Notes: generated by a model from the sequence alone, not told the origin. A stretch of DNA of 64,000 nt from Escherichia coli (GCF_024223415.1 NZ_CP100500.1); one strand, 5' to 3'. Shown: positions 4,840 to 44,012, counted from the stretch's first letter. Numbers and translations are program-made.

Positions 4840-6062
4840 ATGTCGCAACCCTTACTGAAAGTAACCGACCTGGCAAAAAGCTTTTCCGGCGTATGGGCGC
4901 TGAGCAGCGCCCAGCTCACCGTCGGCACGGGTGAAATTCACGCTTTGCTGGGCGAAAACGGCGCTGGGAAATCCACGCTGTTGAAGGCACTCGCGGGCGC
5001 ACAGCCACAAACGCGCGGGGAGATCTGGTTCAATGGCGAAACGCTGCCGGTGGACGACTCCCCGGTAGAACGGCAGAACAAGGGCATTATCACCATCTAT
5101 CAGGAATTCAACCTGCTGCCCAATATGACCGTTGCGGAAAACATGTTTCTCGGACGCGAACCGCGTAAACGTAACCTGATCGTCGACGAAAAAGCGGTCA
5201 ATCAGGAAGCGCAGGTGATTCTCGATTATCTGCAGCTGAATGTCGCACCCACCACGCCAGTCGCCCGTCTGAGCGTGGCCCAGCAGCAGATGGTGGAGAT
5301 TGCCCGGGCGCTGACCCTCAATGCCAGGCTGATCATCATGGATGAACCCTCCGCCGCCCTGAGTGACAGCGAGGTGGAAAGCCTGCACCGCGTGGTGCGG
5401 GAGCTTAAAAACCGCGGCGTGAGCATTATTTACGTTACTCACCGTCTGCATGAAGTTTTCCAGCTTTGCGATCGTTTCACCGTTTTCCAGGATGGCCGTT
5501 TCACCGGCACCGGCGCAGTGACGGAGACGAACGTAGAGCAGTTGATCCGCCTGATGGTAGGGCGTGATGTGGCCTTTAACCGCCGCCCTGCCAGCGAAAC
5601 CCACCATGAAGACAAACCTGTCCGTTTGTCGGTGAAGGGGTTAAGCCGGGAAAAACCGCCGCTGGATCCACACGGCATCGCCCTGCATGACATCAGTTTT
5701 CACGTCCATGCAGGGGAAGTTCTGGGTATCGCTGGGCTGGTGGGGGCTGGTCGTACTGAGGTAGCGCGCTGCCTGTTTGGCGCCGACGCCTTTACCACCG
5801 GCAGCTTTGAGCTGGACGGCGTGCCGTACCAGCCGCGTGACCCACTTTATGCGCTGGAGCAAGGGCTGGCGCTGGTGCCGGAAGATCGCAAAAAAGAGGG
5901 GGCGGTGCTGGGTCTGTCGATTCGCGACAACCTGTCGCTCTCCTGCCTCTCCTCGCTGTTGCAGTGGCGCTGGTTTGTGAATACCCGCAAAGAGGACGAC
6001 CTGATTGAGTCCTACCGCCAGGCGCTGCAGATCAAAATGGTCAACAGCACGCAAGAGGTGCG
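4840..6062 (+). pseudogene. sugar ABC transporter ATP-binding protein, 5' part, interrupted by prophage insertion
   Basis: Walker A GENGAGKST, first signature and second Walker A present; homology stops after ...STQEVR at the prophage end; the 3' part resumes at 43682. Confidence 0.85.
6057..6062. repeat. target-site duplication, left copy (GGTGCG; exact length 5 or 6 bp)
   Basis: Both prophage junctions share the octamer AGGTGCGT; duplicated bases flank the element. Confidence 0.6.
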
Positions 6063-6140
6063 TGATGCGCCGCGCGATAAATGCGCTCTATCTTGTGCGA
6101 TAAATGACAACCAATCGGCGTTTCATTATTTGAAAAAGAA
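6063..6140. repeat. prophage end on the gin side (attR-like) with transposase-binding-type motifs
   Basis: TGATGCGCCGCGCGATAAATG...GCGATAAATG plus CGTTTCATTATTTGAAAAAG resembling the Mu end consensus; mirrored at the other end. Confidence 0.6.
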
Positions 6141-6700
6141 TTACATTTCAGGTTGCGTTATGACTGTCCCAGCGGGGTGATAGCGGTAGATCGTTGACAG
6201 TCCAATATCATAGATAATTACCAGCCGCTTTCTGTCATACCCTTTCTGGAGCAATCTTGCGATCTGCTCATGCTGCTCCTTCGTCAGTTTCGGGCGACGC
6301 CCTCCAACTCTCCCTTGTGCTCGCGCAGCAGTCAGTCCTGCCAGCGTGCGCTCAACTATCAGTTCACGTTCCATTTCTGCCAGTGCACCCATCATATGAA
6401 AAAAAGAACCTTCCCATCGGAGTGCTGGTATCGATTAAATCCGTCAGACTGCGAAAATTGACACCTTTTGCGCGTAGCTCTTCTGTGAGCGAAATGAGGT
6501 GTTTCATTCTTCTACCCAACCGTTACAGCTTCCAGACCACCAATGTATCCCCTCTTTTAAGGCACCTTAAAGCGCGTTTCAGGCCTGGTCGTTGCGACTT
6601 AGTTCCGCTCATTTGTCCTCAAAAATTTGTTCACATCCTGCGCACATTAATACATTGCGTTTTGGTCATTTGTTGACACACGTATGTAGCCAATCAGCAT
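6141..6700 (-). pseudogene. gin: Gin/Pin-family serine DNA invertase, inactivated
   Basis: Translation gives MLIGYIRVSTNDQN, CAGCEQIFEDK, RPGLKRAL..GDTLVVWKL, HLISL..GRFFF and the C-terminal HTH in different frames; in-frame TAA, a 7-A homopolymer frameshift (6399-6405) and further indels. Confidence 0.8.
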
Positions 6701-6770
6701 CAAAAACACTCCCTTTTGAGTGGTTAAAGTAGTGAGATAATGTGGGGAAGATTTGAGAGATAACCCGCCC

Positions 6771-6803
6771 CCGCAATATCGCATTTAACTATATTGTGAG
6801 GGC
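6771..6803. repeat. 33-bp inverted repeat, copy A
   Basis: CCGCAATATCGCATTTAACTATATTGTGAGGGC; 31 of 33 identical to the reverse complement of 7437-7469. Confidence 0.7.
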
Positions 6804-6815
6804 GCGTGATACCGT

Positions 6816-7430
6816 TCAGCCAGCAAGCGCCAGTGGCGCTTCCGGCCAGCTGATTTCAGGTGCCTTGCTGATATCCAGTGCGTTCAGATCGTCGATATAA
6901 TCCAGCACGGCATTCAGTTTTGCCGTTTCTTCTGGTGTCAGACTGCGACCTGCCCGCAACTTAAGGTTGATGAGGTCGATGGACTTCATCGCCTGATCCA
7001 CCCGTTCCTGGCGTTGCTGTCTGGCAACCTCCAGCTCTTCGGCTTGCTGCCGTTCTGTATCGGTTACCCACGCCTCACCGTTCCAGGTATCCCATGGTGT
7101 GGCAGGCTGTTTTGTCGTTGTCCCTTCCGGGTAGTCACCTGGTTGGGTAATCTGGACCGGATTACCGTTCTCTGTGCTGTATACCGTCTCTCCACGATGA
7201 TCGGGGACATACTCCCACCCGTCCAGCGTGGACGTCCGGCAAATCACGTAACCCGGCATTGCCTCTGGCGGGGCATCGGCGCATGAATGTGCCGGGGTAC
7301 CCACCCCCAGGGCCAGATACTCCACAGAGGATGAGGTGTATTCCCGGGTTTCCTCATCATAGTGATATACAGTGATATCGCCTGCGAAAGTGGCGATACC
7401 GTTTTCATCCAGAACTGCAGTGTTACTCAT
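6816..7430 (-). CDS. tail fibre assembly protein (Mu U-like)
   Basis: 204-aa tail fibre assembly protein sequence; start ATG overlaps the tail-fibre stop (TAATG). Confidence 0.8.
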   Translation of the reverse strand: MSNTAVLDENGIATFAGDITVYHYDEETREYTSSSVEYLALGVGTPAHSCADAPPEAMPGYVICRTSTLDGWEYVPDHRGETVYSTENGNPVQITQPGDYPEGTTTKQPATPWDTWNGEAWVTDTERQQAEELEVARQQRQERVDQAMKSIDLINLKLRAGRSLTPEETAKLNAVLDYIDDLNALDISKAPEISWPEAPLALAG

Positions 7431-9268
7431 TAAACTGCCCTCACAATATAATTAAAAGCGATATTGCGCGGTCTGATCGCTATCCATCTGTCTTTTTCAT
7501 TACTCACCAGCTTACCGGCTCTGGCTATTGCCCATCTGTCAACTGGTTTTGTGCCGTACAGGATGCCGTTACCGGTTCTGGGTTGATCAGGGGTTATGTT
7601 TATGATGTCGTTATCATGTGATGCAAATGAAATCCCTGCCTGAATATCTGCACCTCCCGCTACGCCGTGGTACGCCTGTATGGAGGTACAAATATATGTT
7701 GCTTCCTGTGTGGATAACAATAAGCGTCCCCTGTCAATCATTCGCAGGTCATCCCATCCACGAATAAATTCCCCGCGCAAATCTGGTAGCCTGAGGTCAG
7801 GGTAGGCCACCGCCAGTTTTGGGTATTTTGTACGCGTGAATGCGGCACCGTTGCACTGTAACCACCCCTCAGGTGGTCTTGACGAAGGCCACGGAACGGG
7901 TACGCCAACTGGCAGCGTCGAGCCTTCTCCTAAACCAAGGTAATCAAGAATATCTTTTATGCTTTGTTTACCCATGATGACGCGGGCAACAGACGAAAAA
8001 ACAGGGGCGTCTGTGATCTGAGCCCAGCGATGAGTGTGGGCTGCCGAGGCTTTGCTGTTGGCAAGGTCATACGCAGCTTTAACAGCTTTTGGTGTGGCCG
8101 CCAGCATTTCGGAATTGCTGTTTGTGGCGCTGCTTAGCTGTACGATGCCTTTGCGTCCGGTGGTTGCATCCTGTCCTGTATACTTGCTCGTCAGCATATC
8201 GTGTAAGGCTTTAACCGCTTTGGGGGTGGCGGCCTCAGTCTCTGACTCACTGTTTGTGGCACTGCTCAGCTGTACGGTGCCTTTTGCCGTCAGCGAGGCT
8301 GATGGCACACCTGTTATCTGATTCCACGGGTGGGTGTGGCTGGCGGGTGCTTTACCGGCTGCAAGGTCATATGCAGCCTTGACGGCTTTTGGTGTGGCCG
8401 CCAGCGTTTCGGAATTGCTGTTTGTGGCGCTGCTCAGCTGTACGATGCCTTTGCGTCCGGTGGTTGCATCCTGTCCTGTATACTTGCTCGTCACCATATC
8501 GTGTAAGGCTTTAACCGCTTTGGGGGTGGCGGCCTCAGTCTCTGACTCACTGTTTGTGGCACTGCTCAGCTGTACGGTGCCTTTTGCCGTCAGCGAGGCT
8601 GATGGCACACCTGTTATCTGATTCCACGGGTGGGTGTGGCTGGCGGGTGCTTTACCGGCTGCAAGGTCATATGCAGCCTTGACGGCTTTTGGTGTGGCCG
8701 CCAGCGTTTCGGAATTGCTGTTTGTGGCGCTGCTCAGCTGTACGATGCCTTTGCGTCCGGTGGTTGCATCCTGTCCTGTATACTTGCTCGTCACCATATC
8801 GTGTAAGGCTTTAACCGCTTTGGGGGTGGCGGCCTCAGTCTCTGACTCACTGTTTGTGGCACTGCTCAGCTGTACGGTGCCTTTTGCCGTCAGCGAGGCT
8901 GATGGCACACCTGTTATCTGATTCCACGGGTGGGTGTGGCTGGCGGGTGCTTTACCGGCTGCAAGGTCATATGCAGCCTTGACGGCCTTCGGTGTGGCGG
9001 CCAGTGTTTCAGAAGTGCTGTTTGTGGCGCTGCTCAGTTGGGTGAATCCTTTTTCTGTCAGTGTCGCGTCAGGGTGGTTACGGGAACGTGCGTGTTCAGC
9101 CAGTGACTGTGCGACTTCCTCCGTTTTCTTCTTCAGCCATTTCGTCCTGTTTGCCAGTTGCCGGGGGGCTCGATTTGATATCCCGTCTGCACCACCCAGA
9201 ACCGGATCTGATGTCTCCAGTTGATAGATATTTTCTTCCCACTTTTCTGTTTCATTCAGGTTTCCCAT
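7430..9268 (-). CDS. tail fibre protein (Mu S-like) with internal 100-aa repeats
   Basis: Repeated SSATNS..ETLAATPKAVKAAYDLA..HTHPW motifs; GGGAG RBS before ATG at 9268. Confidence 0.85.
   Translation of the reverse strand: MGNLNETEKWEENIYQLETSDPVLGGADGISNRAPRQLANRTKWLKKKTEEVAQSLAEHARSRNHPDATLTEKGFTQLSSATNSTSETLAATPKAVKAAYDLAAGKAPASHTHPWNQITGVPSASLTAKGTVQLSSATNSESETEAATPKAVKALHDMVTSKYTGQDATTGRKGIVQLSSATNSNSETLAATPKAVKAAYDLAAGKAPASHTHPWNQITGVPSASLTAKGTVQLSSATNSESETEAATPKAVKALHDMVTSKYTGQDATTGRKGIVQLSSATNSNSETLAATPKAVKAAYDLAAGKAPASHTHPWNQITGVPSASLTAKGTVQLSSATNSESETEAATPKAVKALHDMLTSKYTGQDATTGRKGIVQLSSATNSNSEMLAATPKAVKAAYDLANSKASAAHTHRWAQITDAPVFSSVARVIMGKQSIKDILDYLGLGEGSTLPVGVPVPWPSSRPPEGWLQCNGAAFTRTKYPKLAVAYPDLRLPDLRGEFIRGWDDLRMIDRGRLLLSTQEATYICTSIQAYHGVAGGADIQAGISFASHDNDIINITPDQPRTGNGILYGTKPVDRWAIARAGKLVSNEKDRWIAIRPRNIAFNYIVRAV
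7437..7469. repeat. 33-bp inverted repeat, copy B (inside the last codons of the tail-fibre gene)
   Basis: GCCCTCACAATATAATTAAAAGCGATATTGCGC; partner of 6771-6803. Confidence 0.7.
7985..9000 (-). repeat. in-frame tandem repeat, 300-bp unit, about 3.4 copies
   Basis: Near-identical 95-aa antisense ORFs at 8034, 8334, 8634 and 8934 reveal the 300-bp period; sense strand encodes repeated 100-aa units. Confidence 0.7.
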
Positions 9269-9270
9269 AA

Positions 9271-9849
9271 TCAACTTCTCCCGTGGTTATAACTGCCATC
9301 ATGGATGGCGGTATTGTTATAGCGAATGGCCACAGACTGATACTCCAGGCTGGCCAGATGGCAGCGGGCCGGTGCAAATGCAGTGAGCGTCTGACGCAGC
9401 ATCGCGGCCTGATCGTTAGTAATGGGCTGTTTCAGAATAACGCGATAAACCGCCCAGCCTGCTGTATCTCCATGAACAAACAGTCCGTTATGGCTGCGAT
9501 TGCCGTCGTAACTGAGACGACCTGTGCCTTCAATCAGATCCACTTCACCAAAGCCAAAACGGCGGATAACTTCCCGGATTGACCACGGCGTCCCTTTATA
9601 CCGGTGCAGTTCGATGGCTGCTTTTATAAGCATGCGGCGAACATCGTCCGATTCCGCCAGCTCCCAGCCATCGCCAGACAGTGAGAACTGCTCGCCCAGC
9701 CATGGCAGCGCGGAACTGTCGACGATATCGACGAGAAAGACCATCAGTACGCTCAGGTCGATGTTATCCAGCCGTCCTGCCAGTCTTCCCAGCGTCCTGA
9801 GACTGATATCACCCTCAAGCGGTGGCGGGAGTTGTAATGGCTCAGTCAT
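9271..9849 (-). CDS. baseplate/tail protein (P2 gpI-like, Mu gp48-like)
   Basis: 192 aa; position between baseplate J and tail fibre. Confidence 0.75.
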   Translation of the reverse strand: MTEPLQLPPPLEGDISLRTLGRLAGRLDNIDLSVLMVFLVDIVDSSALPWLGEQFSLSGDGWELAESDDVRRMLIKAAIELHRYKGTPWSIREVIRRFGFGEVDLIEGTGRLSYDGNRSHNGLFVHGDTAGWAVYRVILKQPITNDQAAMLRQTLTAFAPARCHLASLEYQSVAIRYNNTAIHDGSYNHGRS

Positions 9850-10945
9850 CAGACACTCCAGTCATGTTAAGTGTGATCGCCGTACAGTTTGCCCATTCGT
9901 TTTCTGCCACCACCCTCAGTGCCGGTGTCACCAGCTCAACCTGGTACACCCCGGAAACGGACAATGCACTGATAATCTGGCTGGGGACAATATCACGCCC
10001 CAGCGCGGTGGCACGTGATGCCACCCAGTTCTGTATGGCGCTGTTAGCGTTGTCCTTTACCAGCCTTGCATCCTGGTCACGATAGATCGTAATCCTGGCT
10101 TCAATGGTGTAATCCACCTTCACTGGTGTTTTAGCCCGCACGGTATCAGTGAGTGGTCTGACTTTTTCGTCCGAACAGAAACTCTCTACCAGCGTCAGAA
10201 CACCGCTGTCCGGCAGGCCGGTGCTCAGCAGCGGATAAATTTCTACTGTGCCGGGAACCGGGGAAAGTACAGCAACATCGACAATGCCGGGATGGGCCTG
10301 CATGGCATGAAAGCGGTATGCGCCACGGCTTCCGGCATTGGTGAATGACTCCGGGGCCAGCCTGATACGCTCCCGGAGCCTGTCATCGTCTTCCTGTTCT
10401 GAACCGCCGGAGCTGGCCGTCAGATTGCTCACCAGCAGGTCGACGTTATCAATCTCATCGAGTAACTGACTGACCTGCGCAGGTTGCCAGCCGTTACCAG
10501 CAGTACCGGGTTCGGTACAGGTGGCCGTGACATTGACCAGTAGCAATCCGGCCTTCAGTACCACATCTGTATCGGTGGCAAAAATAACGCTGTCGGAAGC
10601 GCTGACGCGGGTGCCTGCCGGGATCAGCACATCAATGGCCAGTGCCTCATCCACAGAGAACTGGAGCGTGGTGGTGGCAGGCTGCGCGGCAAGGCGGTAT
10701 ACACCGACCAGTTCACCGAGGTAATCAATCATCGGCTCACGGGCAAAGGCGACAAGATTCTGCTTTGCTGCCTCCTGTACCGCAACCCTGACCAGCATTT
10801 CGCGATAGGCCCACAGGTCAATCAGCAGACGTTCTGCCTGTGCCGGGTACAACGTTTTGCCGGTATCCGCTTCATATTTCGCAATTATTTCTGCCGTGAT
10901 TTTATCGGCATCGCGTTCAATAAAATCGGGTTCTGTCAGCGCCAT
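9842..10945 (-). CDS. baseplate J-like protein (Mu gp47-like)
   Basis: 367 aa; baseplate J family sequence and position. Confidence 0.85.
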   Translation of the reverse strand: MALTEPDFIERDADKITAEIIAKYEADTGKTLYPAQAERLLIDLWAYREMLVRVAVQEAAKQNLVAFAREPMIDYLGELVGVYRLAAQPATTTLQFSVDEALAIDVLIPAGTRVSASDSVIFATDTDVVLKAGLLLVNVTATCTEPGTAGNGWQPAQVSQLLDEIDNVDLLVSNLTASSGGSEQEDDDRLRERIRLAPESFTNAGSRGAYRFHAMQAHPGIVDVAVLSPVPGTVEIYPLLSTGLPDSGVLTLVESFCSDEKVRPLTDTVRAKTPVKVDYTIEARITIYRDQDARLVKDNANSAIQNWVASRATALGRDIVPSQIISALSVSGVYQVELVTPALRVVAENEWANCTAITLNMTGVSDD

Positions 10946-11283
10946 AGCAGCTCCTGAGTCCGGGTCTGTCCGTCTGAGCCTTTCCAGCTCACCCGGAGCG
11001 TAAGATGTTCGCCGTCGACGGCGGGTTTAACCGACATAAGCTGGCAGCGGGGTTCCCAGCGCCGGATGGCATCGACGGATTCGCGCACCACATGCGGAAT
11101 GGCCCGGTCTACAGGCCAGTCGATATAAAGATGCAGATTGCTGCCGAACTCCGGGCGATGCGGGTCGCTGCCGCGGGGAGTCCGCAGGATAATTTGAATC
11201 GCCTGCCGGATATCATCCAGCCCCCGGACAATTTCGCCGGGAGCCTGCAGGGCTGGTTGCCAGAATACTGAGGTGGTTTTCAT
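10936..11283 (-). CDS. baseplate protein, GPW/gp25 family (Mu gp46-like)
   Basis: 115 aa; family-typical sequence; overlaps J start. Confidence 0.8.
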   Translation of the reverse strand: MKTTSVFWQPALQAPGEIVRGLDDIRQAIQIILRTPRGSDPHRPEFGSNLHLYIDWPVDRAIPHVVRESVDAIRRWEPRCQLMSVKPAVDGEHLTLRVSWKGSDGQTRTQELLWR

Positions 11284-11339
11284 GGGGGCAGTATTGCCCC
11301 CGGGAAGTAAGCGCCGATATTAAAGGCGTTTAAGAAGGT

Positions 11340-11867
11340 TCAATGGGAATGGTGATTAGAGTTCTGACCATCAGCAAATATGTCACCCGTTGCATGGGCG
11401 CTTCCGTTGATTTCCAGATCACCATTGAGTGTCGCGTTGCCGTTGATTGTGGTAACTCCCGTGAGGTCAATGTCTTTCCCTTTGAGAGAGATATCAGCGG
11501 CAACCTCCACCACGATACGCTCAATACCTCCTCTGACCGTCAGCGTATGGGTCGCGCGGTTATAACTGAACTCCGCGCCATCAGCGTATTTCGTACCCCG
11601 GACGCTTTTATCACTGAACGGCGGTTTATCGACGTCTGAGTACACCGCGCCCAGAATAACACCGTCCTCGCCGTTGGCATCGAGCAGCACCTCAACCTGC
11701 TCCCCCACGTCAGGGAGCCAGTAATCCTTGTTATCCTGGGTATTGCGCTGCAGCACGTTAAGCCAGTTTGTGCGCAGGTTATCGCATTCAGGCAGACGAA
11801 CGCGGGCCTGAACCCTGTCGGCATCAACGGCACTGACCGTACCGACCTGACGAGTGACACCAGTCAT
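11340..11867 (-). CDS. baseplate assembly/spike protein (gpV-like, Mu gp45-like)
   Basis: 175 aa; N-terminal OB-like region then Gly/Asn-rich C-terminus. Confidence 0.75.
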   Translation of the reverse strand: MTGVTRQVGTVSAVDADRVQARVRLPECDNLRTNWLNVLQRNTQDNKDYWLPDVGEQVEVLLDANGEDGVILGAVYSDVDKPPFSDKSVRGTKYADGAEFSYNRATHTLTVRGGIERIVVEVAADISLKGKDIDLTGVTTINGNATLNGDLEINGSAHATGDIFADGQNSNHHSH

Positions 11868-13018: not shown

Positions 13019-13221
13019 GGGGCAATATCCTCTTCTGTACGGGCATCTTCAGCCTCAATAACCGGGATCAGTAACAACAACCCGGAGGGCAGCACCGGCG
13101 TGATAGCCACGTGCGGATTGGCTGCAATAATCCGGGGATAGCCCAGCGGGTCACCGTAGTACTGCCATGCCAGCGAATCCCAGCGCTCTCCGTCACGGGT
13201 AATATGTTCAAGAAACATCAC
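13006..13221 (-). CDS. tail protein X-like
   Basis: 71 aa; small protein between gpU-like and gpD-like genes. Confidence 0.7.
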   Translation of the reverse strand: MMFLEHITRDGERWDSLAWQYYGDPLGYPRIIAANPHVAITPVLPSGLLLLIPVIEAEDARTEEDIAPWLR

Positions 13222-30824: not shown

Positions 30825-30826
30825 GA

Positions 30827-34515: not shown

Positions 34516-34525
34516 GGAGTAATCA

Positions 34526-35443: not shown

Positions 35444-35760
35444 TGAACACGGATAACACACAAAATATCCTGATGGACAGCCCGGAAGCACTGGGGCACG
35501 CACTGTGTAATCTGCTGCCGGAGATGGTGCAGGGTTTCCGCGTGGTGACACCTTCCGGTGAAATCTGCGTACCCGCACAGGAGGCGCATCCGTTTGTACT
35601 GACGATGGAAGTGATGCTGATGCAGCAGATAAGACGTCTGCAGCATCAGTCAGCATTGCGCCCGGCAGTTGCGCCGCAACCGGTAAATAACGTGGTGAAA
35701 ACCTGCGATGGCGAAACACTGTACGACCTCGCCAGAAAAATTGCCGCCAGAATCGGATAA
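35443..35760 (+). CDS. hypothetical early protein (105 aa)
   Basis: ATGA stop-start overlap with the upstream gene. Confidence 0.5.
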   Translation: MNTDNTQNILMDSPEALGHALCNLLPEMVQGFRVVTPSGEICVPAQEAHPFVLTMEVMLMQQIRRLQHQSALRPAVAPQPVNNVVKTCDGETLYDLARKIAARIG

Positions 35761-35775
35761 CAGGGAAGACAAGCT

Positions 35776-37545
35776 ATGACCCCGGCACTGACTGAAAAAC
35801 TTGTTGAAACAGCCCGCGCGGCACGTAATGCAGGGCATGGTAAACGCGGTGCAATATACGACGCTGCCTGTGCTGAACTTGGCATGTCCCGCGCCACTCT
35901 GCTGCGCAGGCTGAAGGAGGTCTCTGTGACTGATAAACGCAAAAAACGCGCCGATGCCGGACGCAGCACCCTGACCCGCGACGAAGCCGCGCTGATATCT
36001 GCCACACTACGTGAGGCCACCCGCAAGAACGGTAAGCGTCTCTATTCCATCGCGGATGCAGTGGAAACCCTGCGGGCTAACGGCTTTATCTCCGCAGGCA
36101 GAACAGATGAAACCACCGGTGAGTTTTTCCCGTTGTCCGAAGATGCCATCAGTCGTGCCCTGCGTAACTATGGCCTGCACCCGGAACAACTGGATGCCCC
36201 TGCACCGCATACCGAAGTGGCCAGTCTGCACCCCAATCATGTCTGGCAGATTGACGCCTCACTCTGCACGCTTTACTACCTGAGCAATGGACATAAAGGG
36301 CTGCAGGTGATGGACAGCGCGAAATTCTACAAGAACAAGCCCGCTAACCTTGCCCGTATCGCCAGTGACCGCGTGTGGAGTTACGAGATTACCGACCATG
36401 CCAGCGGCTGGATTTACGTTGAGTATGTGACGGGTGCGGAATCCGGTGAGAACCTGTGTTCTGTGCTTATCAACGCCATGCAGGAGCGTGGCGGCGCAGA
36501 CGTGCTGCACGGCGTGCCAAAAATACTCTATCTCGACCCCGGCTCGGCAAACACCGCGGGTATGACGAAAAACATGTGCCGCTCACTGGGCATCGACCTG
36601 ATAGCGCACAAGCCGCATAACGCCCGCGCCACCGGACAGGTGGAAAAGGCGCGTGACATTATCGAACGCAAGCTGGAGCCGGGTCTGAAGTTCCGGCCGG
36701 TTCACAGTCTGGAAGAACTCAACGCGCTGGCCGCGAAATGGCGCAGCCACTTTAACGCCACGGCTGTTCACAGCCGCCACGGTAAAACCCGCACGGATAT
36801 CTGGCTGAAGATTACTGCTGAGCAGCTGAAAAAAGCGCCTTCCGTTGAGGTATGTCGTGAACTGGCTGTGGCGGCACCAGAACTCCGCAAAGTCACGCCA
36901 AAACTTCGTGTCTCGTTCCGGGGCACTGAATTTGACGTATCAACGGTACCGGGCGTACTGGTCGGTGAAAAACTGATGATTACCCGTAACCCGTGGCGCA
37001 GCGATGTGGCACAGGTGGTTCTGACCGGTGAGGACGGCCACGAGACGTTCTTCCTGGTCGAAGAGGTCAGAAAGAACGAGTTTGGCTTTGCTGAAGGCGC
37101 GGCGGTATTTGGCGAAAGTTACAAAGCCCTGCCGGAAACCCCGGCGCAGATGGCGGCAAAAGAAACCGAAGCGCTGGTCACCGGTACAGACAACGCCGCA
37201 GATGCAGCTGCCGCACGCAAGGCGAAGGCGCTGCCGTTCGGCGGGCGGCTTGACCCGTATAAACATATTGATGACGCCACACTTCCGGCCTGTATACCGA
37301 AGCGTGGTCAGGCCTCTGACGTACGCGGACCGCGCACTGAACAGCGTCCCATGACTCATGTGGAGGCCGCGAAAGCCCTGCGCGGGAAGTTTAGCGCAAA
37401 CGGCCTGACCTGGACGCCGGAACATTACCGCCAGTTAACGGCACAGTACCCGGACGGCGTACCGGAAGCCGCACTGGATGAAGTCATGGCCACGCTGACC
37501 ACGCCGGCCCGCAGCAGCGTTATCAGCATTGTTAACGGCAACTGA
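35776..37545 (+). CDS. DDE transposase (Mu A-like)
   Basis: 589 aa; N-terminal HTH, integrase-core-like region (HVWQIDASL...), followed by the B-like ATPase. Confidence 0.85.
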   Translation: MTPALTEKLVETARAARNAGHGKRGAIYDAACAELGMSRATLLRRLKEVSVTDKRKKRADAGRSTLTRDEAALISATLREATRKNGKRLYSIADAVETLRANGFISAGRTDETTGEFFPLSEDAISRALRNYGLHPEQLDAPAPHTEVASLHPNHVWQIDASLCTLYYLSNGHKGLQVMDSAKFYKNKPANLARIASDRVWSYEITDHASGWIYVEYVTGAESGENLCSVLINAMQERGGADVLHGVPKILYLDPGSANTAGMTKNMCRSLGIDLIAHKPHNARATGQVEKARDIIERKLEPGLKFRPVHSLEELNALAAKWRSHFNATAVHSRHGKTRTDIWLKITAEQLKKAPSVEVCRELAVAAPELRKVTPKLRVSFRGTEFDVSTVPGVLVGEKLMITRNPWRSDVAQVVLTGEDGHETFFLVEEVRKNEFGFAEGAAVFGESYKALPETPAQMAAKETEALVTGTDNAADAAAARKAKALPFGGRLDPYKHIDDATLPACIPKRGQASDVRGPRTEQRPMTHVEAAKALRGKFSANGLTWTPEHYRQLTAQYPDGVPEAALDEVMATLTTPARSSVISIVNGN

Positions 37546-37555
37546 GGAGGGAAAC

Positions 37556-38722
37556 ATGCTGGTACTGAAGCAGCAACTGAAAGAGGCCCGTATTCCACAG
37601 GCGGTGGCGGCGAGAGCTGTCGATGTTTCTGAGGCCACGCTGGCCCAGATTGTGAATCATAACGCGTGGCCCCGCACCAGCCCCGGAGAAGTGCGCCGGC
37701 GTCTTGCGTCCTGGCTGGAAAGTCAGGGGATTGATACAACGAAGAGTTTTGATGCTGTACAGGGCGCGGCCACGCCCCGTACAGCGAGTACCACAGATAA
37801 AACGAGCCTCAGTGAGGAAGAGAATATGTTACTCAAAAAACAGGTGTTATTTCCAGCAACCAAAAAAGCGTTTGGTCTTTTCCGTGACCCGTTCGCCGAC
37901 GAAGCCATGCAGGGTTCTGATGATGTGTTCACCACCCCGGACATTCGCTACGTGCGTGAGGCGCTGTACCAGACAGCCCGTCATGGTGGGTTTATGGCCG
38001 TCATCGGTGAGTCCGGTGCGGGTAAATCCACGCTGCGCCGCGACCTGACTGAACGTATTAACCGCGAGAATGCGCCGGTAATTGTTATCGAGCCATACAT
38101 CATTGCCATGGAAGACAACGATGTGAAAGGGAAAACCCTGAAGGCTGCAGCGATTGCCGAAGCCATTATCAGTACCATCGCACCACTGGAAAGCATCAGA
38201 CGCAGTCAGGACGCCCGCTTTCGCCAGTTGCATCGCGTCCTGAAAGGCAGCAGCCAGGCGGGGTTCAGCCACGTTCTGGTGATTGAGGAGGCCCACAGTC
38301 TGCCCATTCCGACACTGAAACACCTCAAACGCTTTTTTGAGCTGGAGTCCGGTTTCAAAAAACTGCTGTCCATCGTGCTGATTGGCCAGCCGGAACTGGC
38401 GACAAAACTGTCTGAACGCAATATGGAAGTCCGTGAAGTCGTTCAGCGCTGTGAGGTGGTCGAACTTCTGCCTCTGGACAATAACCTTGAAGAATTTCTG
38501 ACGTTCAAACTGCAACGGGCCGGTAAACAACTGACGGACATTATGGACGCCAGCGCAGTGGATGCCATACGTGCCCGCCTGAGCAATCCGGGAAGTCATC
38601 GTAAAAATATGGTCAGCCTGCTGTATCCGCTGGCCGTCAGTAACCTGGTAATAGCCGCCATGAATCTGGCCGCTGAAATCGGGGTTCCACAGGTCAACGC
38701 TGACGTTGTCAAAGGAGTTTAA
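37556..38722 (+). CDS. transposition ATPase (Mu B-like, AAA+)
   Basis: Walker A GESGAGKST, Walker B HVLVIEEAH; GAGGAGG RBS before ATG 37556. Confidence 0.85.
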   Translation: MLVLKQQLKEARIPQAVAARAVDVSEATLAQIVNHNAWPRTSPGEVRRRLASWLESQGIDTTKSFDAVQGAATPRTASTTDKTSLSEEENMLLKKQVLFPATKKAFGLFRDPFADEAMQGSDDVFTTPDIRYVREALYQTARHGGFMAVIGESGAGKSTLRRDLTERINRENAPVIVIEPYIIAMEDNDVKGKTLKAAAIAEAIISTIAPLESIRRSQDARFRQLHRVLKGSSQAGFSHVLVIEEAHSLPIPTLKHLKRFFELESGFKKLLSIVLIGQPELATKLSERNMEVREVVQRCEVVELLPLDNNLEEFLTFKLQRAGKQLTDIMDASAVDAIRARLSNPGSHRKNMVSLLYPLAVSNLVIAAMNLAAEIGVPQVNADVVKGV

Positions 38723-38724
38723 TA

Positions 38725-38994
38725 ATGAAATCCACCACAGGTATCAACCAGCAAATCAGCAAAGTGCAGTCAGCCATTATGGCGCTTAAGGCGACGAACA
38801 CGGATGTACAAAGCATCACCATCAGGGGTAACAAACCTGTCATCCGCGTTTCCCGGAGTGCGCATTGCATGCGCATGCTTGAGCAGGGAAAGGCCTGTTA
38901 TCTGTATACCGGACATGACCACAGGGGATATTTCCGTCAGGGCGTTTTCGAACTGCACGGCTGTCGCGTCGTGTGGCCGGAATCTTTGTGGTAA
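38725..38994 (+). CDS. hypothetical early protein (kil-position)
   Basis: 89-aa ORF between B and gam. Confidence 0.5.
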   Translation: MKSTTGINQQISKVQSAIMALKATNTDVQSITIRGNKPVIRVSRSAHCMRMLEQGKACYLYTGHDHRGYFRQGVFELHGCRVVWPESLW

Positions 38995-39021
38995 TCAGCA
39001 CAACCGGAGAAATCATAAAAT

Positions 39022-39552
39022 ATGGCAAAAAGTACAAAAGGGGCAAAACGTATCAAGGCCGCAGCGGCACTCTGGGTACCAGGGACACGCGAAGAGGTCA
39101 TTGAGGGAATCAGACTACTCGGTGACGCACAACGTGAACTGGTCAGGGCTGAAACAGAAATGAATGACGCCATTGGCGATATCACCGCACGTTATGCCCC
39201 GCTCACCGAGAGCCTGAAAAAACGCATGGCCGAACTGCAGTCCGGTATTCAGACATGGTGTGAGGCACACCGTGATGAACTGACCGGCAACGGGAAGGTG
39301 AAGTTCGCTAACCTCACCACCGGCGAGGTGCAGTGGCGAAACCGTCCGCCATCAGTCAGTATCCGTGGGGCGGATAATGTTATTGAATTACTGAGACGTC
39401 TGGGGCTTGAGCGCTTTATTCGTGTAAAAGAGGAAATAAATAAAGACGCTATCCTGAATGAAAAAGAGGCCGTGAAAAATATTCCCGGTATTTCCATTAA
39501 AAGCGACATTGAGGATTTTTCAATAATTCCTTTTGAGCAGGATGTGCAGTAA
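39022..39552 (+). CDS. gam: host-nuclease inhibitor Gam
   Basis: Closely parallels Mu Gam along its length (..SIRG.D.V.E.L.RLGL.RFIR.K.EINK.AIL.. and C-terminal IEDFSIIPFEQ). Confidence 0.85.
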   Translation: MAKSTKGAKRIKAAAALWVPGTREEVIEGIRLLGDAQRELVRAETEMNDAIGDITARYAPLTESLKKRMAELQSGIQTWCEAHRDELTGNGKVKFANLTTGEVQWRNRPPSVSIRGADNVIELLRRLGLERFIRVKEEINKDAILNEKEAVKNIPGISIKSDIEDFSIIPFEQDVQ

Positions 39553-39649
39553 ACACACCACGTTAATTATTTAATAAAAACATTTTCTTTTTTATTCCGG
39601 CGTCAGCGCCGCGGGCTTCTGCACGCCGGAAACAGAGGAGAATTAAATC

Positions 39650-39844
39650 ATGATATTTAAATGTATTCAGTGCGAGAGGGATATAACAGCCCTGCGTTTT
39701 CACAGCGCCATCGCCGTGATGTCCGGTAAATACCACATCCCTGCGGTACGCGTCACCCTGGTCTGTCCGTACTGCAGCCAGCATTTTTCGGCAGACGTGC
39801 CCGTCATGGAATTCTCCCGCCCTGACAGGGAGGACGCGCAATGA
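39650..39844 (+). CDS. Com-like zinc-finger protein candidate
   Basis: CxxC...CxxC (CIQC..CPYC) in 64 aa; stop overlaps the start of the next ORF (ATGA). Confidence 0.5.
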   Translation: MIFKCIQCERDITALRFHSAIAVMSGKYHIPAVRVTLVCPYCSQHFSADVPVMEFSRPDREDAQ

Positions 39845-40113
39845 TTACCCCACAGGAAGCACGACAGCGCACCCGAACCCTTGTTGAACACTATGTCAAC
39901 GAGTGTGAATGTCGCGACCTCACCGATGTGAAGCACGTCCTGACGGCGCTAATCAGCATGGCCACACAGGCCATTGTGGCAACCAACGGAAAGGCGGCTG
40001 CCCTGCAGGTACTGATGAACACACTCACCCACACGGCAGAGCATGAGGTGCCGTACCGGATGGAAACCACTGCAGAAGGCGGCCTGCACATCACCGTCAG
40101 CCGGAAGCACTGA
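39841..40113 (+). CDS. hypothetical protein (90 aa)
   Basis: Translationally coupled to the Com-like ORF. Confidence 0.5.
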   Translation: MITPQEARQRTRTLVEHYVNECECRDLTDVKHVLTALISMATQAIVATNGKAAALQVLMNTLTHTAEHEVPYRMETTAEGGLHITVSRKH

Positions 40114-40122
40114 GGGTGCGGC

Positions 40123-40419
40123 ATGACACGAAACACCGAACTCACCCGCACCGCCCTCTACCGTCTGGCCCTGCAGCGTTTCGGGCCGGATGCACAGGCC
40201 CTGAAACTGACAGAAGAGGCCGCTGAACTGGCGGCCAGTGCTGCCCGCAACCTGAACGGACAGGGCAGCGAAAGTGACCTCGCGGCAGAGCTGGCAGACG
40301 TGGAAATCATGACAGAGCAACTGCGCCTTCAGGGGATGGACCGGCTGATTGACTTCCACAAACAGAAAAAACTGGAACGTCTGGCTGCACGACTGGGCGT
40401 GATTTACACGAACGAGTAA
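40123..40419 (+). CDS. MazG-like nucleotide pyrophosphohydrolase candidate
   Basis: EExxE ... ExxD acidic motif pattern (EEAAELAAS ... AAELADVE) in a 98-aa all-alpha protein. Confidence 0.5.
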   Translation: MTRNTELTRTALYRLALQRFGPDAQALKLTEEAAELAASAARNLNGQGSESDLAAELADVEIMTEQLRLQGMDRLIDFHKQKKLERLAARLGVIYTNE

Positions 40420-40645
40420 CCGGGAGGCATTCAATGGCTGACATACTCAGGGAAATCACCGCATGGACACTGATTCTTACTGGTCTGGCGACATGCCTCA
40501 GTGCGGGAGCAGCCCTGGCTGCCCTGCTGATGCACATAACAACACAGTGGTTATGAGAAAAGCTTAAAGCAGCATACAGCCTGAAAGAGCTGTCCGACGC
40601 TGTCCGGGCATGGAAACGGCAGAAAAATACCGGAGATACAGAACA

Positions 40646-41329
40646 ATGACAGACCAGAATAAACACATTGAGAAACTGAAAAAGTTGCTGGCGCTGGCCG
40701 CATCCGGCAACCCGCATGAGGCTGCTCTGGCACTGCGCCGCGCCCGTAAACTGATGGATGTTCACGGCATCACACATTCCGACATCGCCATGAGTGATAT
40801 TGATGAAACCATCAGTCACTACTGGCCGACAGGCAGCCTCCGTCCGCCGCGCTACATGCCAGGGCTGATGAACATCATCCGCGAGGCATTTGGTGTTAAC
40901 TCCATCATTCACCCCGGCACATATCCGGGTGTGGGGTTCTACGGCAAACGGGAACGGGCCGCACTGGCCGCGTACACCTGGGAAGTGCTGGCCCGTCAGC
41001 TGAAAAAGGCGCGTCAGCAGTATATCAGTGCACAGAACAAAAGAATAAAAACCGCCACCCGCACCAGCCGTGGAGACCAGTTTGCTGAAGGCTGGGTGCT
41101 GGCCGTTATCAGTGAAATACAGTCCTTCGCCCTGACCAATGACGAACGTGAACTGATGCAGCAGTGGCTGGAACATAAATACCCGCAGACGCAAACCACC
41201 AGGGCGCGTAAACCGGGAAGAAGTCGCAATGGCGACGCCTCGCGCTATGCGGGGTTTCGAGAAGGGCAGAACGTCAGACTGCACCGACCGGTCAGTGGGC
41301 GGGAACAGCAGAAACTGGAGGCCAGATGA
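40646..41329 (+). CDS. hypothetical early protein with conserved N-terminal helical domain
   Basis: Start at ATG 40646; N-terminal IEKLKKLLALAASGNPHEAALALRRARKLM. Confidence 0.55.
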   Translation: MTDQNKHIEKLKKLLALAASGNPHEAALALRRARKLMDVHGITHSDIAMSDIDETISHYWPTGSLRPPRYMPGLMNIIREAFGVNSIIHPGTYPGVGFYGKRERAALAAYTWEVLARQLKKARQQYISAQNKRIKTATRTSRGDQFAEGWVLAVISEIQSFALTNDERELMQQWLEHKYPQTQTTRARKPGRSRNGDASRYAGFREGQNVRLHRPVSGREQQKLEAR

Positions 41330-41556
41330 TGACGTTATCAGGTAACAGCCGGAAATTAAAAGCCTGCCGAATATCTGCCAGATACCTTTTTGCCCGCGCC
41401 TTTTTTAAGAACGTCAGGCCGGGGATCACAATTGGTGTTATTGCCGGACGCGAACAGGTTGAAAAATACATGTCAGGTGCATGGTGGAATAAAGACCCTG
41501 TCATTGCTGCCCGTAATATTCATATCAGTTGGGGAGATATTCAGAATGACTGCTGA
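41326..41556 (+). CDS. hypothetical small protein
   Basis: 76-aa ORF; weak support. Confidence 0.35.
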   Translation: MMTLSGNSRKLKACRISARYLFARAFFKNVRPGITIGVIAGREQVEKYMSGAWWNKDPVIAARNIHISWGDIQNDC

Positions 41557-41761
41557 ATCTGTTGTATGTGCCCTGTTCTGGTATTGTTTTGTCGGTTGGT
41601 GTACTGCTGAACTGCACCGCCGTTCAGGGTTTTATTCACGTTACAGTGGTGCCGGTTACTGGATTAGCTGGTCGGTGATGTTCCTGTGCTGGCCTGTGGC
41701 ATTTCCTTTATATGTCGATTATATCGGTGATGCAGGCAGAAGGAGCAACGATGATGACTAA
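41546..41761 (+). CDS. small membrane protein
   Basis: GGGGAG RBS; two hydrophobic helices in 71 aa. Confidence 0.45.
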   Translation: MTAESVVCALFWYCFVGWCTAELHRRSGFYSRYSGAGYWISWSVMFLCWPVAFPLYVDYIGDAGRRSNDDD

Positions 41762-42203
41762 ACAACGTCTTATCCAGCTTATCCATATTGCCCGTAATGA
41801 ACTGGGTATGGATGAAGACACCTACCGCCAGATGTTACAGGGGCTGACCGGTAAAGCCTCAACCAAAGGAATGGATACCACACAACTAAACTGCGTGCTG
41901 GAATCCATGAAAAGGAAAGGCTTTCGCGTTAAGCCTGCCGGAAAAGCCAGCTCCGGTTTACCGCTGGATAACCATCCGCAGTCCAGGAAAATCCGTGCGC
42001 TATGGCTTGAAATGGCTGCTGCCGGCATTGTTCGTGACCGTTCAGAAAATGCATTAGCGCGGTGGATCAAGCGGGAAACGGGCATCAGCGCCCTGCGCTG
42101 GCTCAATACTGAACAGGCAAGCAGTGTTATTGAGAAACTGAAGAAGTGGCAGCACAGAGCTGCGGGAGTAAAACATGAGCGACCTGAATCAGTTTCGAAG
42201 TAA
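41751..42203 (+). CDS. gemA: GemA-like regulatory protein (Mu gp16 family)
   Basis: AGGAG RBS before ATG 41751; GemA-family N-terminal sequence; directly upstream of mor. Confidence 0.7.
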   Translation: MMTKQRLIQLIHIARNELGMDEDTYRQMLQGLTGKASTKGMDTTQLNCVLESMKRKGFRVKPAGKASSGLPLDNHPQSRKIRALWLEMAAAGIVRDRSENALARWIKRETGISALRWLNTEQASSVIEKLKKWQHRAAGVKHERPESVSK

Positions 42204-42573
42204 AGGGCCGGAACTCCTGGTGGAGCTGGCACAGCATACCTCTGAGACCGTTCGCGAGATTATTGATATTGAGCCCGCAATTGCCGACCAGATTGGTCAG
42301 GCCGTCGCGAACCGAATGATGCAGGTCTGGGGCGGGCAAAACGTTTATTTCCCGATGGGCATGGTATGGAAGGTCAGTCAGCGCGACCGGGAAATCTTCA
42401 GGGAGTTTAACGGACGCAACCACCACGAACTGGCCCGCAAGTTTGGTGTTTCGCTTCAGTGGGTCTACAGCGTGGTTAAGCGGGTCAGAAAAGAAGAACT
42501 GGATCGGATGCAGGGCAGGTTGTTTGATGAAGATCTGCCAGAGGAGACGAAAGACGTTAACAAATCCAGATAA
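42175..42573 (+). CDS. mor: Mor-family transcriptional activator
   Basis: 132 aa; C-terminal ..FNGRNHHELARKFGVSLQWVYSVVKR.. parallels Mu Mor (..FNGRNVSELTTRYGVTFNTVYKAIRR..). Confidence 0.75.
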   Translation: MSDLNQFRSKGPELLVELAQHTSETVREIIDIEPAIADQIGQAVANRMMQVWGGQNVYFPMGMVWKVSQRDREIFREFNGRNHHELARKFGVSLQWVYSVVKRVRKEELDRMQGRLFDEDLPEETKDVNKSR

Positions 42574-42618: not shown

Positions 42619-42650
42619 AGCACGGTAGACCCCGTACCGTGCTTTTTTTA
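42619..42650 (+). terminator. rho-independent terminator
   Basis: AGCACGGTA-loop-TACCGTGCT stem followed by 7 T. Confidence 0.6.
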
Positions 42651-42687
42651 TGCTCTCTCTTTAGTATTCAGGATGCAGGGAGAAAAT

Positions 42688-43320
42688 ATGTTTGACGTTT
42701 CGTTGTTAAATCTGCCATGGGCAACACTGGTGACCCTGACCAGTGGCTATATTGGGTATTTTATTGCGAATGTGGGACTGAAGGATCACCACAAGCCCAT
42801 TGAGGTGACTTTTTCTTCGCTGATTTTTGGCCTGACAGCAATGATGGCTTACCAGGCTGTTATGTGGGCAGGTCTGAATGCCTGGCTGGCAACACCACCA
42901 GCACTTCTGTGTGCCGTTACATGCGGTGCGTGGTGGCGCAGGTACGGTCGCAAATGGATGTACAGATTACTGTGGAATAATGATATTTCATGGTCTGACG
43001 ATACCAGCTCAGCATGGCAGGCAATGTTTGATCAAACAGGCTTCAGCGTTACCGAGGTCAGAGTGATTCTTCGCGATGGTTCCGGTATGATGTCACGGCT
43101 GCCAGGGAACTTTGAACAGTGGCCTAACGGTCCGTTTACCCTGGGGAATAAAGGCGATATGGTTCTTTACGTCACGCACAGCAGCCCTTCAGGCAGTAAC
43201 GAATGGGAAGAGTATAAAGGCGTGGTTGATAAGTACTGGGGAGCTCTGGCAACCTATATTCCAGCAGATCAGATTGCCAGAGTGGAGATCAGGCGCGTTC
43301 GTGCAACGAACGATGAATGA
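42688..43320 (+). CDS. membrane protein of unknown function (moron candidate)
   Basis: 210 aa; 2-3 N-terminal TM helices plus soluble C-terminal domain; downstream of the mor terminator, about 360 bp from the prophage end. Confidence 0.6.
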   Translation: MFDVSLLNLPWATLVTLTSGYIGYFIANVGLKDHHKPIEVTFSSLIFGLTAMMAYQAVMWAGLNAWLATPPALLCAVTCGAWWRRYGRKWMYRLLWNNDISWSDDTSSAWQAMFDQTGFSVTEVRVILRDGSGMMSRLPGNFEQWPNGPFTLGNKGDMVLYVTHSSPSGSNEWEEYKGVVDKYWGALATYIPADQIARVEIRRVRATNDE

Positions 43321-43599
43321 TGTTTATTTTTTCCCTGGGGCAGGGGCTGCCGGCATAGTGGTTTTATTGGCAGAGGAAGACGATTCTCCTTTTCTACCGG
43401 AATCGCGCTCGAACGTCACGATGTGCTTGCTTTTGGGATTTTCTGAGTAATCCAGGCTATCATGCTTATTGTTTTGAGTAGTCATTGGAATCATCCTTTT
43501 TGTTGCGGGTCATGTTTCAGCAAACTCGATTCTAAGTTGCCAGGAAGGATGATTTCAATGCCCGACTTATCTATCGTATAGCGGAAAAGAATTTCAGTT

Positions 43600-43681
43600 C
43601 TGTTCACCAGAACCCATGTTAACCCACTCCAATTCGTTATTTATCTCACGGATCCCCCTTCATTTATCTCATGTCTGATCA
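43600..43681. repeat. prophage end distal to gin, with transposase-binding-type motifs
   Basis: Reverse complement reads TGATCAGACATGAGATAAATG...GTGAGATAAATA, mirroring the other end (TGAT, 9 nt, GATAAATG, 15 nt, GATAAAT). Confidence 0.55.
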
Positions 43682-43687
43682 GGTGCG
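43682..43687. repeat. target-site duplication, right copy (GGTGCG)
   Basis: Matches 6057-6062. Confidence 0.6.
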
Positions 43688-44012
43688 TAAGCTCTCTGGC
43701 GGCAACCAGCAGAAAGTTATCCTCGCGCGCTGCATGGCGCTCAATCCACGGGTGTTGATTGTCGATGAGCCGACGCGTGGCATCGACGTTGGAACCAAAT
43801 CGGAAGTGCACCAGGTGTTGTTTGATATGGCGAAAAAGGGCGTGGCGGTGATCGTGATCTCCTCCGATCTGCTTGAAGTGATGGCGGTGTCTGACCGGAT
43901 CATCACCCTTAGTGAAGGCCGGTTAACTGGCGAGATCCACGGTGACGACGCTAACGAAGAACGGCTGATGACGATGATGGCTATCAACCACAACGCCCTG
44001 AACGCGGCATAA
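43682..44012 (+). pseudogene. sugar ABC transporter ATP-binding protein, 3' part
   Basis: Begins in frame with the second ABC signature (LSGGNQQKV) and Walker B (LIVDEPT); continues the ORF broken at 6062. Confidence 0.85.

Follow-up and report, generated by a model that had tools for sequence, protein, structure and literature searches.

A BcepMu-like transposable prophage in the sugar ABC transporter ATPase gene of an Escherichia coli iol cluster

Phage Mu duplicates 5 bp of its target, and Tn552, whose transposase is paired with an ATP-binding protein, duplicates 6-7 bp. A total of six transposase binding sites has been described for Mu (PMC2628397). Phage BcepMu was described by Summer et al. 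2004 (cited in PMC2628397 and PMC2920897). Phages of its type have TG...CA termini with 23-bp imperfect terminal repeats (PMC2920897, PMC2628397), encode transposases closest to that of Tn552 (PMC2628397) and package flanking host DNA (PMC2771037, PMC2920897); the annotation of BcepMu gp9 likewise points to Tn552. Here we analyze a 37.6-kb insert in a 64,000-nucleotide stretch of an Escherichia coli genome (GCF_024223415.1, NZ_CP100500.1), referred to as the window. The insert interrupts the gene for the ATPase of a sugar ATP-binding cassette (ABC) transporter within an iol (inositol) gene cluster. We conclude that it is very probably a temperate, transposable myovirus of the BcepMu lineage that is essentially complete and that entered by DDE-transposase strand transfer into a non-specific target in the ATPase gene. 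No literature specific to BcepMu-like prophages of E. coli, or to their deposited relative Escherichia phage PhiKM, was retrieved.

The open reading frame (ORF) that begins at position 4840 encodes a two-domain sugar ABC ATPase and is readable to ...NSTQEVR at 6062, after which the sequence is unrelated. The frame is picked up again at 43683 and continues through the Walker B motif to a stop at 44012. Both junctions contain the octamer AGGTGCGT (6056-6063 and 43681-43688). These observations agree with a first-pass annotation made from the sequence of the window, with one correction: the detached piece, taken there for the C-terminal half of the protein, amounts to about a fifth, 108 codons at the end of a 515-codon gene. 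Removal of the insert in silico (6063-43687) joins 4840-6062 to 43688-44012 in a single ORF of 1548 nt and 515 codons. This rebuilt ORF differs at 1 nt in 1548 from the intact gene for WP_000082086.1 of E. coli CE0026f, and the joined flanks, 7.5 kb in length, differ from CE0026f at 16 nt. An exact-sequence look-up returned no record of the rebuilt 515-amino acid protein, because the window allele has one residue-changing nucleotide relative to the common allele. The empty site, CAAGA-GGTGCG-TAAGC with the hexamer present once, was found in three E. coli genomes (CE0026f, 33F4 and strain 11), where the ATPase gene is 1548 nt long and uninterrupted. The two parts of the gene are thus contiguous in intact homologs, as had been supposed. 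Among the 5,426 complete E. coli genomes surveyed, the iol cluster is present in 51, with at least 99% identity in 44 of those (megablast of the left flank), and the prophage-iol junction is present in none.

Eight base pairs are common to both junctions, so the boundaries cannot be fixed from the iol insertion alone, and other insertions of the same element were therefore examined. Both junctions were read in eight other genomes: ABU 83972, AR_0085, 2014EL-1343-2, PK8275, MS1494, Ec1117, PKF11 and FORC_031. All eight insertions begin TGATGCGCCGCGCGATAAATG and finish CATGTCTGATCA, and all are flanked by exact 6-bp direct repeats, each of a different sequence (ATTTGT, ATTATT, ACCGGC, GGATAT, ACAGGA, GCTAGT, ACTTTC and GAAATG). 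The ATTTGT duplication belongs to an insertion in rstB and the ACAGGA duplication to one in kefF. Since the bases beside the repeat differ in several of these insertions, the element can be defined as 5'-TG...CA-3' and its duplication as 6 bp. A duplication of this length is in keeping with the 6-7 bp of Tn552. The insert in the window then occupies 6063-43681 (37,619 bp) between two copies of GGTGCG. Its ends were correctly recognized in the first-pass annotation (it begins TGATGCGCCGCGCGATAAATG and ends CATTTATCTCATGTCTGATCA), and the flanking repeat, given there as 5-6 bp, is exactly 6 bp long.

No two of the nine insertions, that of the window and the eight others, share a locus, and each is flanked by an exact 6-bp duplication of different sequence. 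Elsewhere the split host genes are annotated as pseudogenes, as for rstB in ABU 83972, the phosphopentomutase gene (deoB) in PK8275 and kefF in MS1494; other E. coli genes found interrupted include ssuB, paaJ and ascB, among others. Read from the tail-proximal end of the element, the first duplicated base is a purine in nine of nine insertions and there is otherwise no obvious consensus, in a sample too small to define a target preference. The tail-proximal 400 bp of the prophage matches about 600 (596) of the 5,426 genomes, which is an upper estimate because most of this query is the invertase gene, shared with P2-like phages (P88 is matched). The early-proximal 400 bp matches 117 genomes over at least 80% of its length and 253 with matches of any extent, and many different host genes adjoin it. 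Insertion at many loci with different 6-bp duplications demonstrates that the element inserts by non-specific transposition, not by site-specific integration. This had been claimed at the outset and is borne out by the empty site and by a gene content that includes transposase, B, Gam, GemA and Mor but no integrase. The insertion in the iol cluster looks recent, because its duplication is perfect and the gene halves are 1 nt in 1548 from intact alleles.

The termini carry putative transposase-binding repeats. Comparison of the left end with the reverse complement of the right end shows identity at 15 of the first 23 nt; TGAT, GATAAATG at positions 14-21 and GATAAAT(G/A) at positions 37-44 are shared, and the two repeats are spaced by 23 bp. 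GMGATAAATR is found four times in the 64 kb, in each case at an end of the insert, two copies per end, 23 bp apart and inverted between the ends; 0.51 copies were expected, and none of 100 shuffles reached four. Imperfect terminal inverted repeats carrying a motif twice at the same spacing had been noted before; that description stands, with a spacing of 23 bp, except that the inner copy at the right end reads GATAAATA and not GATAAATG. The tail-proximal terminus is retained in the eight other insertions, three of which have one single-nucleotide difference. The ends of BcepMu are built in the same way: TGAAG is followed by GMGATATTT and, after 23 bp, by GCGATAWWT. At the tail-proximal end, 18 of the first 23 nt are also those of Mu attR.

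A further motif, CGTTTCATTATTTGAAAAAG (6117-6136, between the inner repeat and the invertase stop codon), had been described as Mu att-like. The motif is present, and only its first 9 nt fit the Mu att consensus in a comparison by eye. It has no counterpart at the other end, and the transposase has no pairwise similarity to MuA. We therefore rejected it as a binding site.

Gene assignments were made with PHROG, Pfam and NCBIfam profiles (Table 1). The late genes occupy the minus strand (6816-31177) in the order tail fiber, P2-type baseplate and tail, head, terminase and lysis. The early operon occupies the plus strand (33966-42573), and the repressor and an accessory region lie between the two arms. 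This map is the mirror image of that of BcepMu, where genes 1-16, which extend from Mor to the regulators, point leftward and genes 17-52 point rightward; synteny is gene by gene with BcepMu genes 1-17 and 21-52. We compared 53 window proteins with the BcepMu and Mu genomes by using tblastn. The transposase is 68% identical to BcepMu gp9 over residues 1-577 of 589, and the B protein is 59% identical to gp8 over 388 of 388 residues. BcepMu is also matched by the DUF3102 protein, the regulators, holin, SLT, TerS, portal (58%), F, G, protease and capsid proteins and, in the tail, by the sheath (76%), the tube (67%) and all P2-type baseplate proteins. Amino acid identity in the tail/baseplate module is 29-76% (to BcepMu gp39-51), and over both arms it is 23-76%.

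Matches to Mu were restricted to Gam (62%), F (47%), G, portal, TerL, GemA and Mor (GemA and Mor being 31-36% identical to their counterparts), plus short or weak matches of the tail fiber and baseplate J. The baseplate J match, weak and partial (28% over residues 18-151, E 9e-4), is the sole one to Mu in the tail/baseplate module. Neither the window transposase nor B gave a tblastn match to MuA or MuB at E<1e-3. MuA and MuB belong to the same PHROG families as the window proteins (phrog_310 and phrog_296), and at this profile level the transposition machineries of Mu and of the window prophage are therefore remote homologs. Alignment of the transposase to retroviral integrase cores suggests a putative catalytic triad of D160, D254 and E290, a DD(35)E arrangement with the canonical 35-residue spacing. 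A PDB sequence search with the transposase returned only weak matches to the retroviral integrase core and none to MuA.

At the nucleotide level, genome similarity is about 17% to BcepMu (25% aligned at about 68% identity) versus about 2% to Mu. The genus Bcepmuvirus in its strict sense requires at least 70% nucleotide similarity to BcepMu, far above the value of about 17% found here; to judge by these sequences, BcepMu and the window phage would be different genus-level lineages. The closest deposited phage is Escherichia phage PhiKM (PQ738613.1), a partial genome from a uropathogenic isolate, which is 94% identical over 84% of the query; GenBank places it in Bcepmuvirus. It is followed by Klebsiella phage KP12. 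The window prophage has the attributes of transposable phages in the broad sense ("saltoviruses"), namely an rve transposase and AAA+ ATPase without an integrase, insertion at multiple sites and TG...CA termini with end repeats. It also has those of BcepMu-like phages: orthologs of gp9 and gp8, divergent arms with the repressor between them and terminal repeats of about 23 bp. The "Mu-type" label of the first-pass annotation is therefore apt for the transposable lifestyle, whereas sequence, gene order and tail module assign the prophage to the BcepMu lineage and not to Mu proper. Likewise, the "complete Mu-like gene set" reported there is present, but it is BcepMu-like rather than Mu-like and is nearly, not wholly, intact.

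By comparison with the 98%-identical prophage of PK8275, 51 of 55 genes are full-length, free of stops and at least 92% identical in amino acid sequence. The transposase, B, repressor and Mor genes, all head, tail and lysis genes and both termini are intact. The four exceptions are the invertase, an ORF with a nonsense codon, baseplate V (70%) and an alternative fiber fragment absent from the window. The Gin-like invertase gene (6141-6713), intact at 190 amino acids in eight of eight relatives examined, has acquired a +1 insertion in an A7 run, a 1-bp deletion and a 13-bp deletion, and its alignment contains six stops. The nonsense codon falls in a 71-codon early ORF (40434-40646) that is conserved in relatives. 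The missing fragment, a C-terminal fiber segment of about 0.45 kb, lies beside the invertase gene in relatives, and the tip of the window tail fiber also differs from theirs. The 35-nt inverted repeats nearby (91% complementary) enclose only the tail fiber assembly gene; this segment of about 0.7 kb is inverted between relatives, as seen in AR_0085 (extract 1440-2151) versus PK8275 (extract 2200-1489) and MS1494.

Other differences from relatives take the form of repeats and exchanged alleles. The tape measure gene contains four in-frame tandem copies of 261 bp (14703-15759). Its product has 1157 amino acids in the window versus 983 in PK8275 and AR_0085, a difference of two extra 261-bp units, which might change tail length. 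The tail fiber gene contains 3.3 in-frame tandem copies of 300 bp (8061-9037). Between 27012 and 28398, most of the large terminase (TerL) gene and the C-terminal quarter of the small terminase (TerS) gene have been swapped jointly for an allele with only 25% protein identity. Of the 5,426 genomes, 19 others carry this allele in the same prophage context, and TerL itself is bona fide (phrog_5909).

These lesions bear on whether the prophage, having arrived by transposition, is now defective (cryptic) and without infectious or transposing progeny. An invertase with at least three frameshifting indels and several stops, a nonsense codon in the 71-codon ORF, a lost alternative fiber fragment and a TerL exchanged for a 25%-identical allele are what such a prophage might show. 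However, the Mu invertase is dispensable, and by analogy that of the window phage probably is too; the small ORF has no known essential role. The core genes and the termini are intact and 92-100% identical to those of relatives, except for baseplate V, and the occurrence of the same TerL/TerS-C-terminus module in 19 other genomes suggests a working mosaic. With its duplication perfect and its host flanks near-identical, the insertion has the marks of a recent event. A defective prophage thus seems rather unlikely. Several points nevertheless weigh against an essentially complete phage with the activities and effects proposed here. Induction, excision and transposition of this copy are putative. 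The invertase pseudogene and the nonsense codon indicate that some decay has begun. TerL is only 25% identical to that of most relatives, which makes its fit with the rest of the head module putative, even with the same combination in those 19 genomes. The roles of the terminal repeats, repressor and Mor are assigned by analogy, and the polar effect on the downstream iol catabolic genes, while probable, is inferred from gene order only.

Other origins for the insert are much harder to sustain. Membership of the genus of Mu itself (Muvirus: Mu, D108 and SfMu) is highly improbable. The transposable lifestyle, the identities of Gam, F-like, GemA and Mor proteins to those of Mu, the terminal nucleotides shared with Mu attR, the Gin-like invertase by the tail fiber genes and the common PHROG families of MuA and MuB would all accord with it; but BLAST-level similarity to MuA and MuB is lacking, the duplication measures 6 bp instead of 5 bp, early and late genes point in opposite directions as in BcepMu, the tail is P2-type and identical aligned nucleotides amount to only about 2% of the genome for Mu, versus about 17% for BcepMu. 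In addition, the invertase pseudogene ends 78 bp from the terminus, so that there is no room for com/mom. A conventional prophage, placed by a site-specific recombinase at an attachment site within the ATPase gene, is more improbable still. There is a serine recombinase gene at one end of the insert, but it encodes a small Gin-type invertase (190 amino acids in relatives) and is a pseudogene in the window. No tyrosine or large serine integrase gene was found among the insert ORFs compared with the relative and with BcepMu and Mu, the prophage occupies the iol site in none of the complete genomes surveyed, and nine loci with nine 6-bp duplications already refute such a mode of entry. Misassembly of unrelated contigs, in favor of which there is nothing specific, can be dismissed with similar assurance: it would not reproduce junctions that fall exactly at conserved phage termini and carry one hexamer in common, present just once in the empty site, a pattern that is the exact hallmark of transposition.

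For a transposable phage of the BcepMu lineage, the following cycle can be proposed by analogy with known systems. In the lysogen, the cI-like repressor (33527-33865) would silence the rightward early operon. Upon induction, the transposase would bind the four terminal repeats, pair the ends and nick at the 3' CA. The ends, presumably protected by Gam, would be joined with a 6-bp stagger to target DNA captured by the B ATPase, and the genome would be replicated by repeated transposition. Mor would then switch on the leftward late arm (lysis, head and P2-type tail), and headful packaging would take up phage DNA with host DNA attached.

The interrupted gene belongs to a plus-strand, tightly spaced iol series: iolG, binding protein, ATPase, permease, Gfo/Idh/MocA dehydrogenase, iolC/J fusion, iolE and iolB. 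In the window, every ORF downstream of the ATPase gene is intact. The ATPase itself is cut at residue 408 of 515, immediately ahead of the signature motif in its second nucleotide-binding domain. The protein would be expected to lose the signature, Walker B and H-loop region of that domain. A block of 37.6 kb now parts iolG and the binding protein gene from the permease and iolC/J-E-B genes. Given both the loss of the ATPase and this separation, inositol uptake via this transporter should be abolished, with probable polarity on the catabolic genes downstream. For annotation, the iol ABC transporter ATPase should be recorded as one prophage-disrupted pseudogene and not as two genes, myo-inositol uptake and catabolism should be regarded as probably impaired, and the prophage label should read BcepMu-like, not Mu.

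Two additional observations concern the ATPase gene. The right end of the phage supplies an ATG (ATGTCTGATCA followed by GGTGCG...) in frame with the detached 3' piece. The resulting ORF of 113 codons (43671-44012) could in principle express the orphan C-terminal fragment. In E. coli 33F4 (NZ_CM147849.1, extract 3278-4825), the same gene has been separately inactivated by a C-to-T change at nt 622, and it is a RefSeq pseudogene with an internal stop. This suggests that the transporter is dispensable in some E. coli.

The window prophage is an ordinary example of a family common in E. coli and will not surprise a phage specialist. The lineage is widespread; it often acts as a natural insertional mutagen of E. 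coli genes, and its duplication is strictly 6 bp. One region near the center of the prophage (fraction 0.48) deserves mention. A 214-bp gap (23976-24189) between the Mu G-like and protease/scaffold genes shares with the equivalent BcepMu gap the 16-nt sequence TTTATAAAGGCTTTAC (24116-24131, part of a palindrome) and TAAAGC-GATTAAAA, despite an overall similarity to BcepMu of only about 17%. In Mu, the strong gyrase site and the I-gene late promoter are at the equivalent central position. A broader and decidedly tentative proposal, which we put forward as possible but doubtful, is that E. coli BcepMu-type prophages are an abundant, active and experimentally almost untouched lineage whose transposition is mechanistically unlike that of Mu, that TTTATAAAGGCTTTAC has a gyrase-site or Mor-dependent late-promoter role and that the iol insertion is a very recent in-population event knocking out inositol utilization. 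Departures from the Mu paradigm may then include the Tn552-like transposase, two sites per end and the 6-bp stagger.

Table 1. Coordinates of the interrupted gene, the prophage termini and the prophage genes in the window
Feature	Coordinates	Strand	Remarks
Sugar ABC transporter ATP-binding gene of iol cluster, 5' part (codons 1-407 plus 2 bases of codon 408)	4840-6062	+	Ends with left duplication copy; identical to intact E. coli gene up to junction
Target-site duplication GGTGCG, left copy	6057-6062		Single copy in empty site of 3 E. coli genomes
Tail-proximal terminus: 5'-TG, then two putative transposase-binding repeats GCGATAAATG at 6074-6083 and 6097-6106, 23 bp apart	6063-6110	+	
Gin-like serine invertase, inactivated	6141-6713	-	Aligned to intact 190-aa homolog
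Segment bounded by 35-nt inverted repeats (6769-6803 and 7437-7471); holds tail fiber assembly gene 6816-7430 (-)	6769-7471		
Tail fiber gene with internal tandem repeat	7430-9274	-	
P2-type contractile tail/baseplate: I, J, W, V, D, X, U-like, tape measure (14102-17575), chaperone, tube, sheath	9271-20398	-	
Head/packaging module: connectors and the seven genes that follow	20388-28810	-	
Major capsid	21897-22850	-	Head module
Protease/scaffold	22860-23975	-	Head module
Mu G-like	24190-24648	-	Head module
Mu F-like	24651-25472	-	Head module
DUF935 portal	25453-26949	-	Head module
Large terminase	26949-28265	-	phrog_5909, E 1e-65
Small terminase	28262-28810	-	Head/packaging module
Lysis cassette: holin 30827-31177, SLT transglycosylase 30090-30824, Rz-like 29447-30100, two small membrane proteins	28813-31177	-	RefSeq names in relatives
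Accessory region between arms: three unknown-function proteins, orphan Dam-family adenine methyltransferase (32644-33408, +)	31309-33408		
Helix-turn-helix (HTH) repressor (cI-like), divergent from early operon	33527-33865	-	37% identical to BcepMu gp17
Early operon start: HTH regulators 33966-34154 and 34207-34515, DUF3102 protein 34526-35443, 105-aa protein	33966-35760	+	
DDE (rve) transposase, 589 aa	35776-37545	+	phrog_310 E 8e-147, Pfam rve, 68% identical to BcepMu gp9
MuB-like AAA+ transposition ATPase (RefSeq: ExeA family)	37556-38722	+	phrog_296 E 7e-93, Pfam AAA_22, 59% identical to BcepMu gp8
Early/middle operon remainder: Gam 39022-39552, small ORFs, DUF2786 40646-41329, GemA/gp16 41754-42203, Mor 42175-42573	38725-42573	+	
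End-proximal genes: 210 aa (+), 53 aa (-)	42688-43485		Match only unknown-function PHROG families
Early-proximal terminus: putative repeats GAGATAAATA at 43638-43647 and GAGATAAATG at 43661-43670 (minus strand), ends ...CA-3'	43634-43681	-	
Target-site duplication GGTGCG, right copy	43682-43687		Single copy in empty site of 3 E. coli genomes
ATPase gene, 3' part: LSGGNQQKV signature motif, Walker B, rest of second nucleotide-binding domain	43688-44012	+	

Among the accessory genes, PADLOC and NCBIfam scans identified no defense system, only the orphan Dam methylase and a weak P-loop match. Outside the prophage, the iol cluster appears to lie on a tRNA-Phe-associated genomic island (window 49850-64000), the arrangement of which is unlike the region downstream of iolB in CE0026f. 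The tRNA-Phe gene is at 60429-60504 (-), with a P4-type tyrosine integrase gene immediately downstream (59068-60282). IS2 and IS1 transposase genes (50589-52728) and a gene for a Dcm-family cytosine methyltransferase (57344-58468) are also located here. A phosphoethanolamine-transferase-like protein (54098-55771) scores far under all MCR cut-offs, and a gene for a constitutive-type ornithine decarboxylase (61632-63851) lies on the other side of tRNA-Phe.

The nearest relatives of the window prophage are the E. coli BcepMu-like prophages, such as those in rstB of ABU 83972, deoB of PK8275 and kefF of MS1494, and phage PhiKM. They share its termini and gene order and are 94-98% identical to it in nucleotide sequence over most of their length. 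Peculiar to the window prophage among these relatives are the iol site, the dead invertase, the lost fiber fragment, the minority TerL allele, the two extra 261-bp repeats and the fiber tip.

BcepMu (NC_005882) resembles the window phage in its divergent layout, Tn552-like rve transposase, ExeA-like B protein, P2-type tail, SLT endolysin, TG...CA termini and repeats spaced by 23 bp. In contrast to BcepMu, the window phage has a Mu-type Gam, a Dam methylase and the remnant of a Gin-type invertase, and it is missing the BcepMu acyltransferase and several BcepMu early genes; the hosts also differ. The duplication length of BcepMu itself was not stated in the literature found, and Burkholderia prophage junctions did not establish it. 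In B. cenocepacia NCTC13227, a BcepMu prophage with TG...CA ends is flanked by agcatg on one side versus aattgg on the other, with no duplication (extracts 89-110 and 10893-10914), which might be the outcome of replicative transposition followed by rearrangement between two copies.

With Mu (NC_000929), the window phage has in common the lifestyle of a temperate transposable myovirus, random insertion with a short duplication, TG...CA termini and multiple terminal binding sites, as well as A and B, Gam, GemA, Mor, the F, G and portal head genes and an invertase beside the tail fibers. Mu differs in its collinear transcription, Mu-type tail, c/ner-type regulators and com/mom, and it has three binding sites per end, whereas two putative sites per end are detectable in the window phage. 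Transposons of the Tn552/IS1604 type, with an rve transposase and an AAA+ partner, are alike by their description in the literature and annotation, but these are small transposons, whereas the window element is a complete phage.

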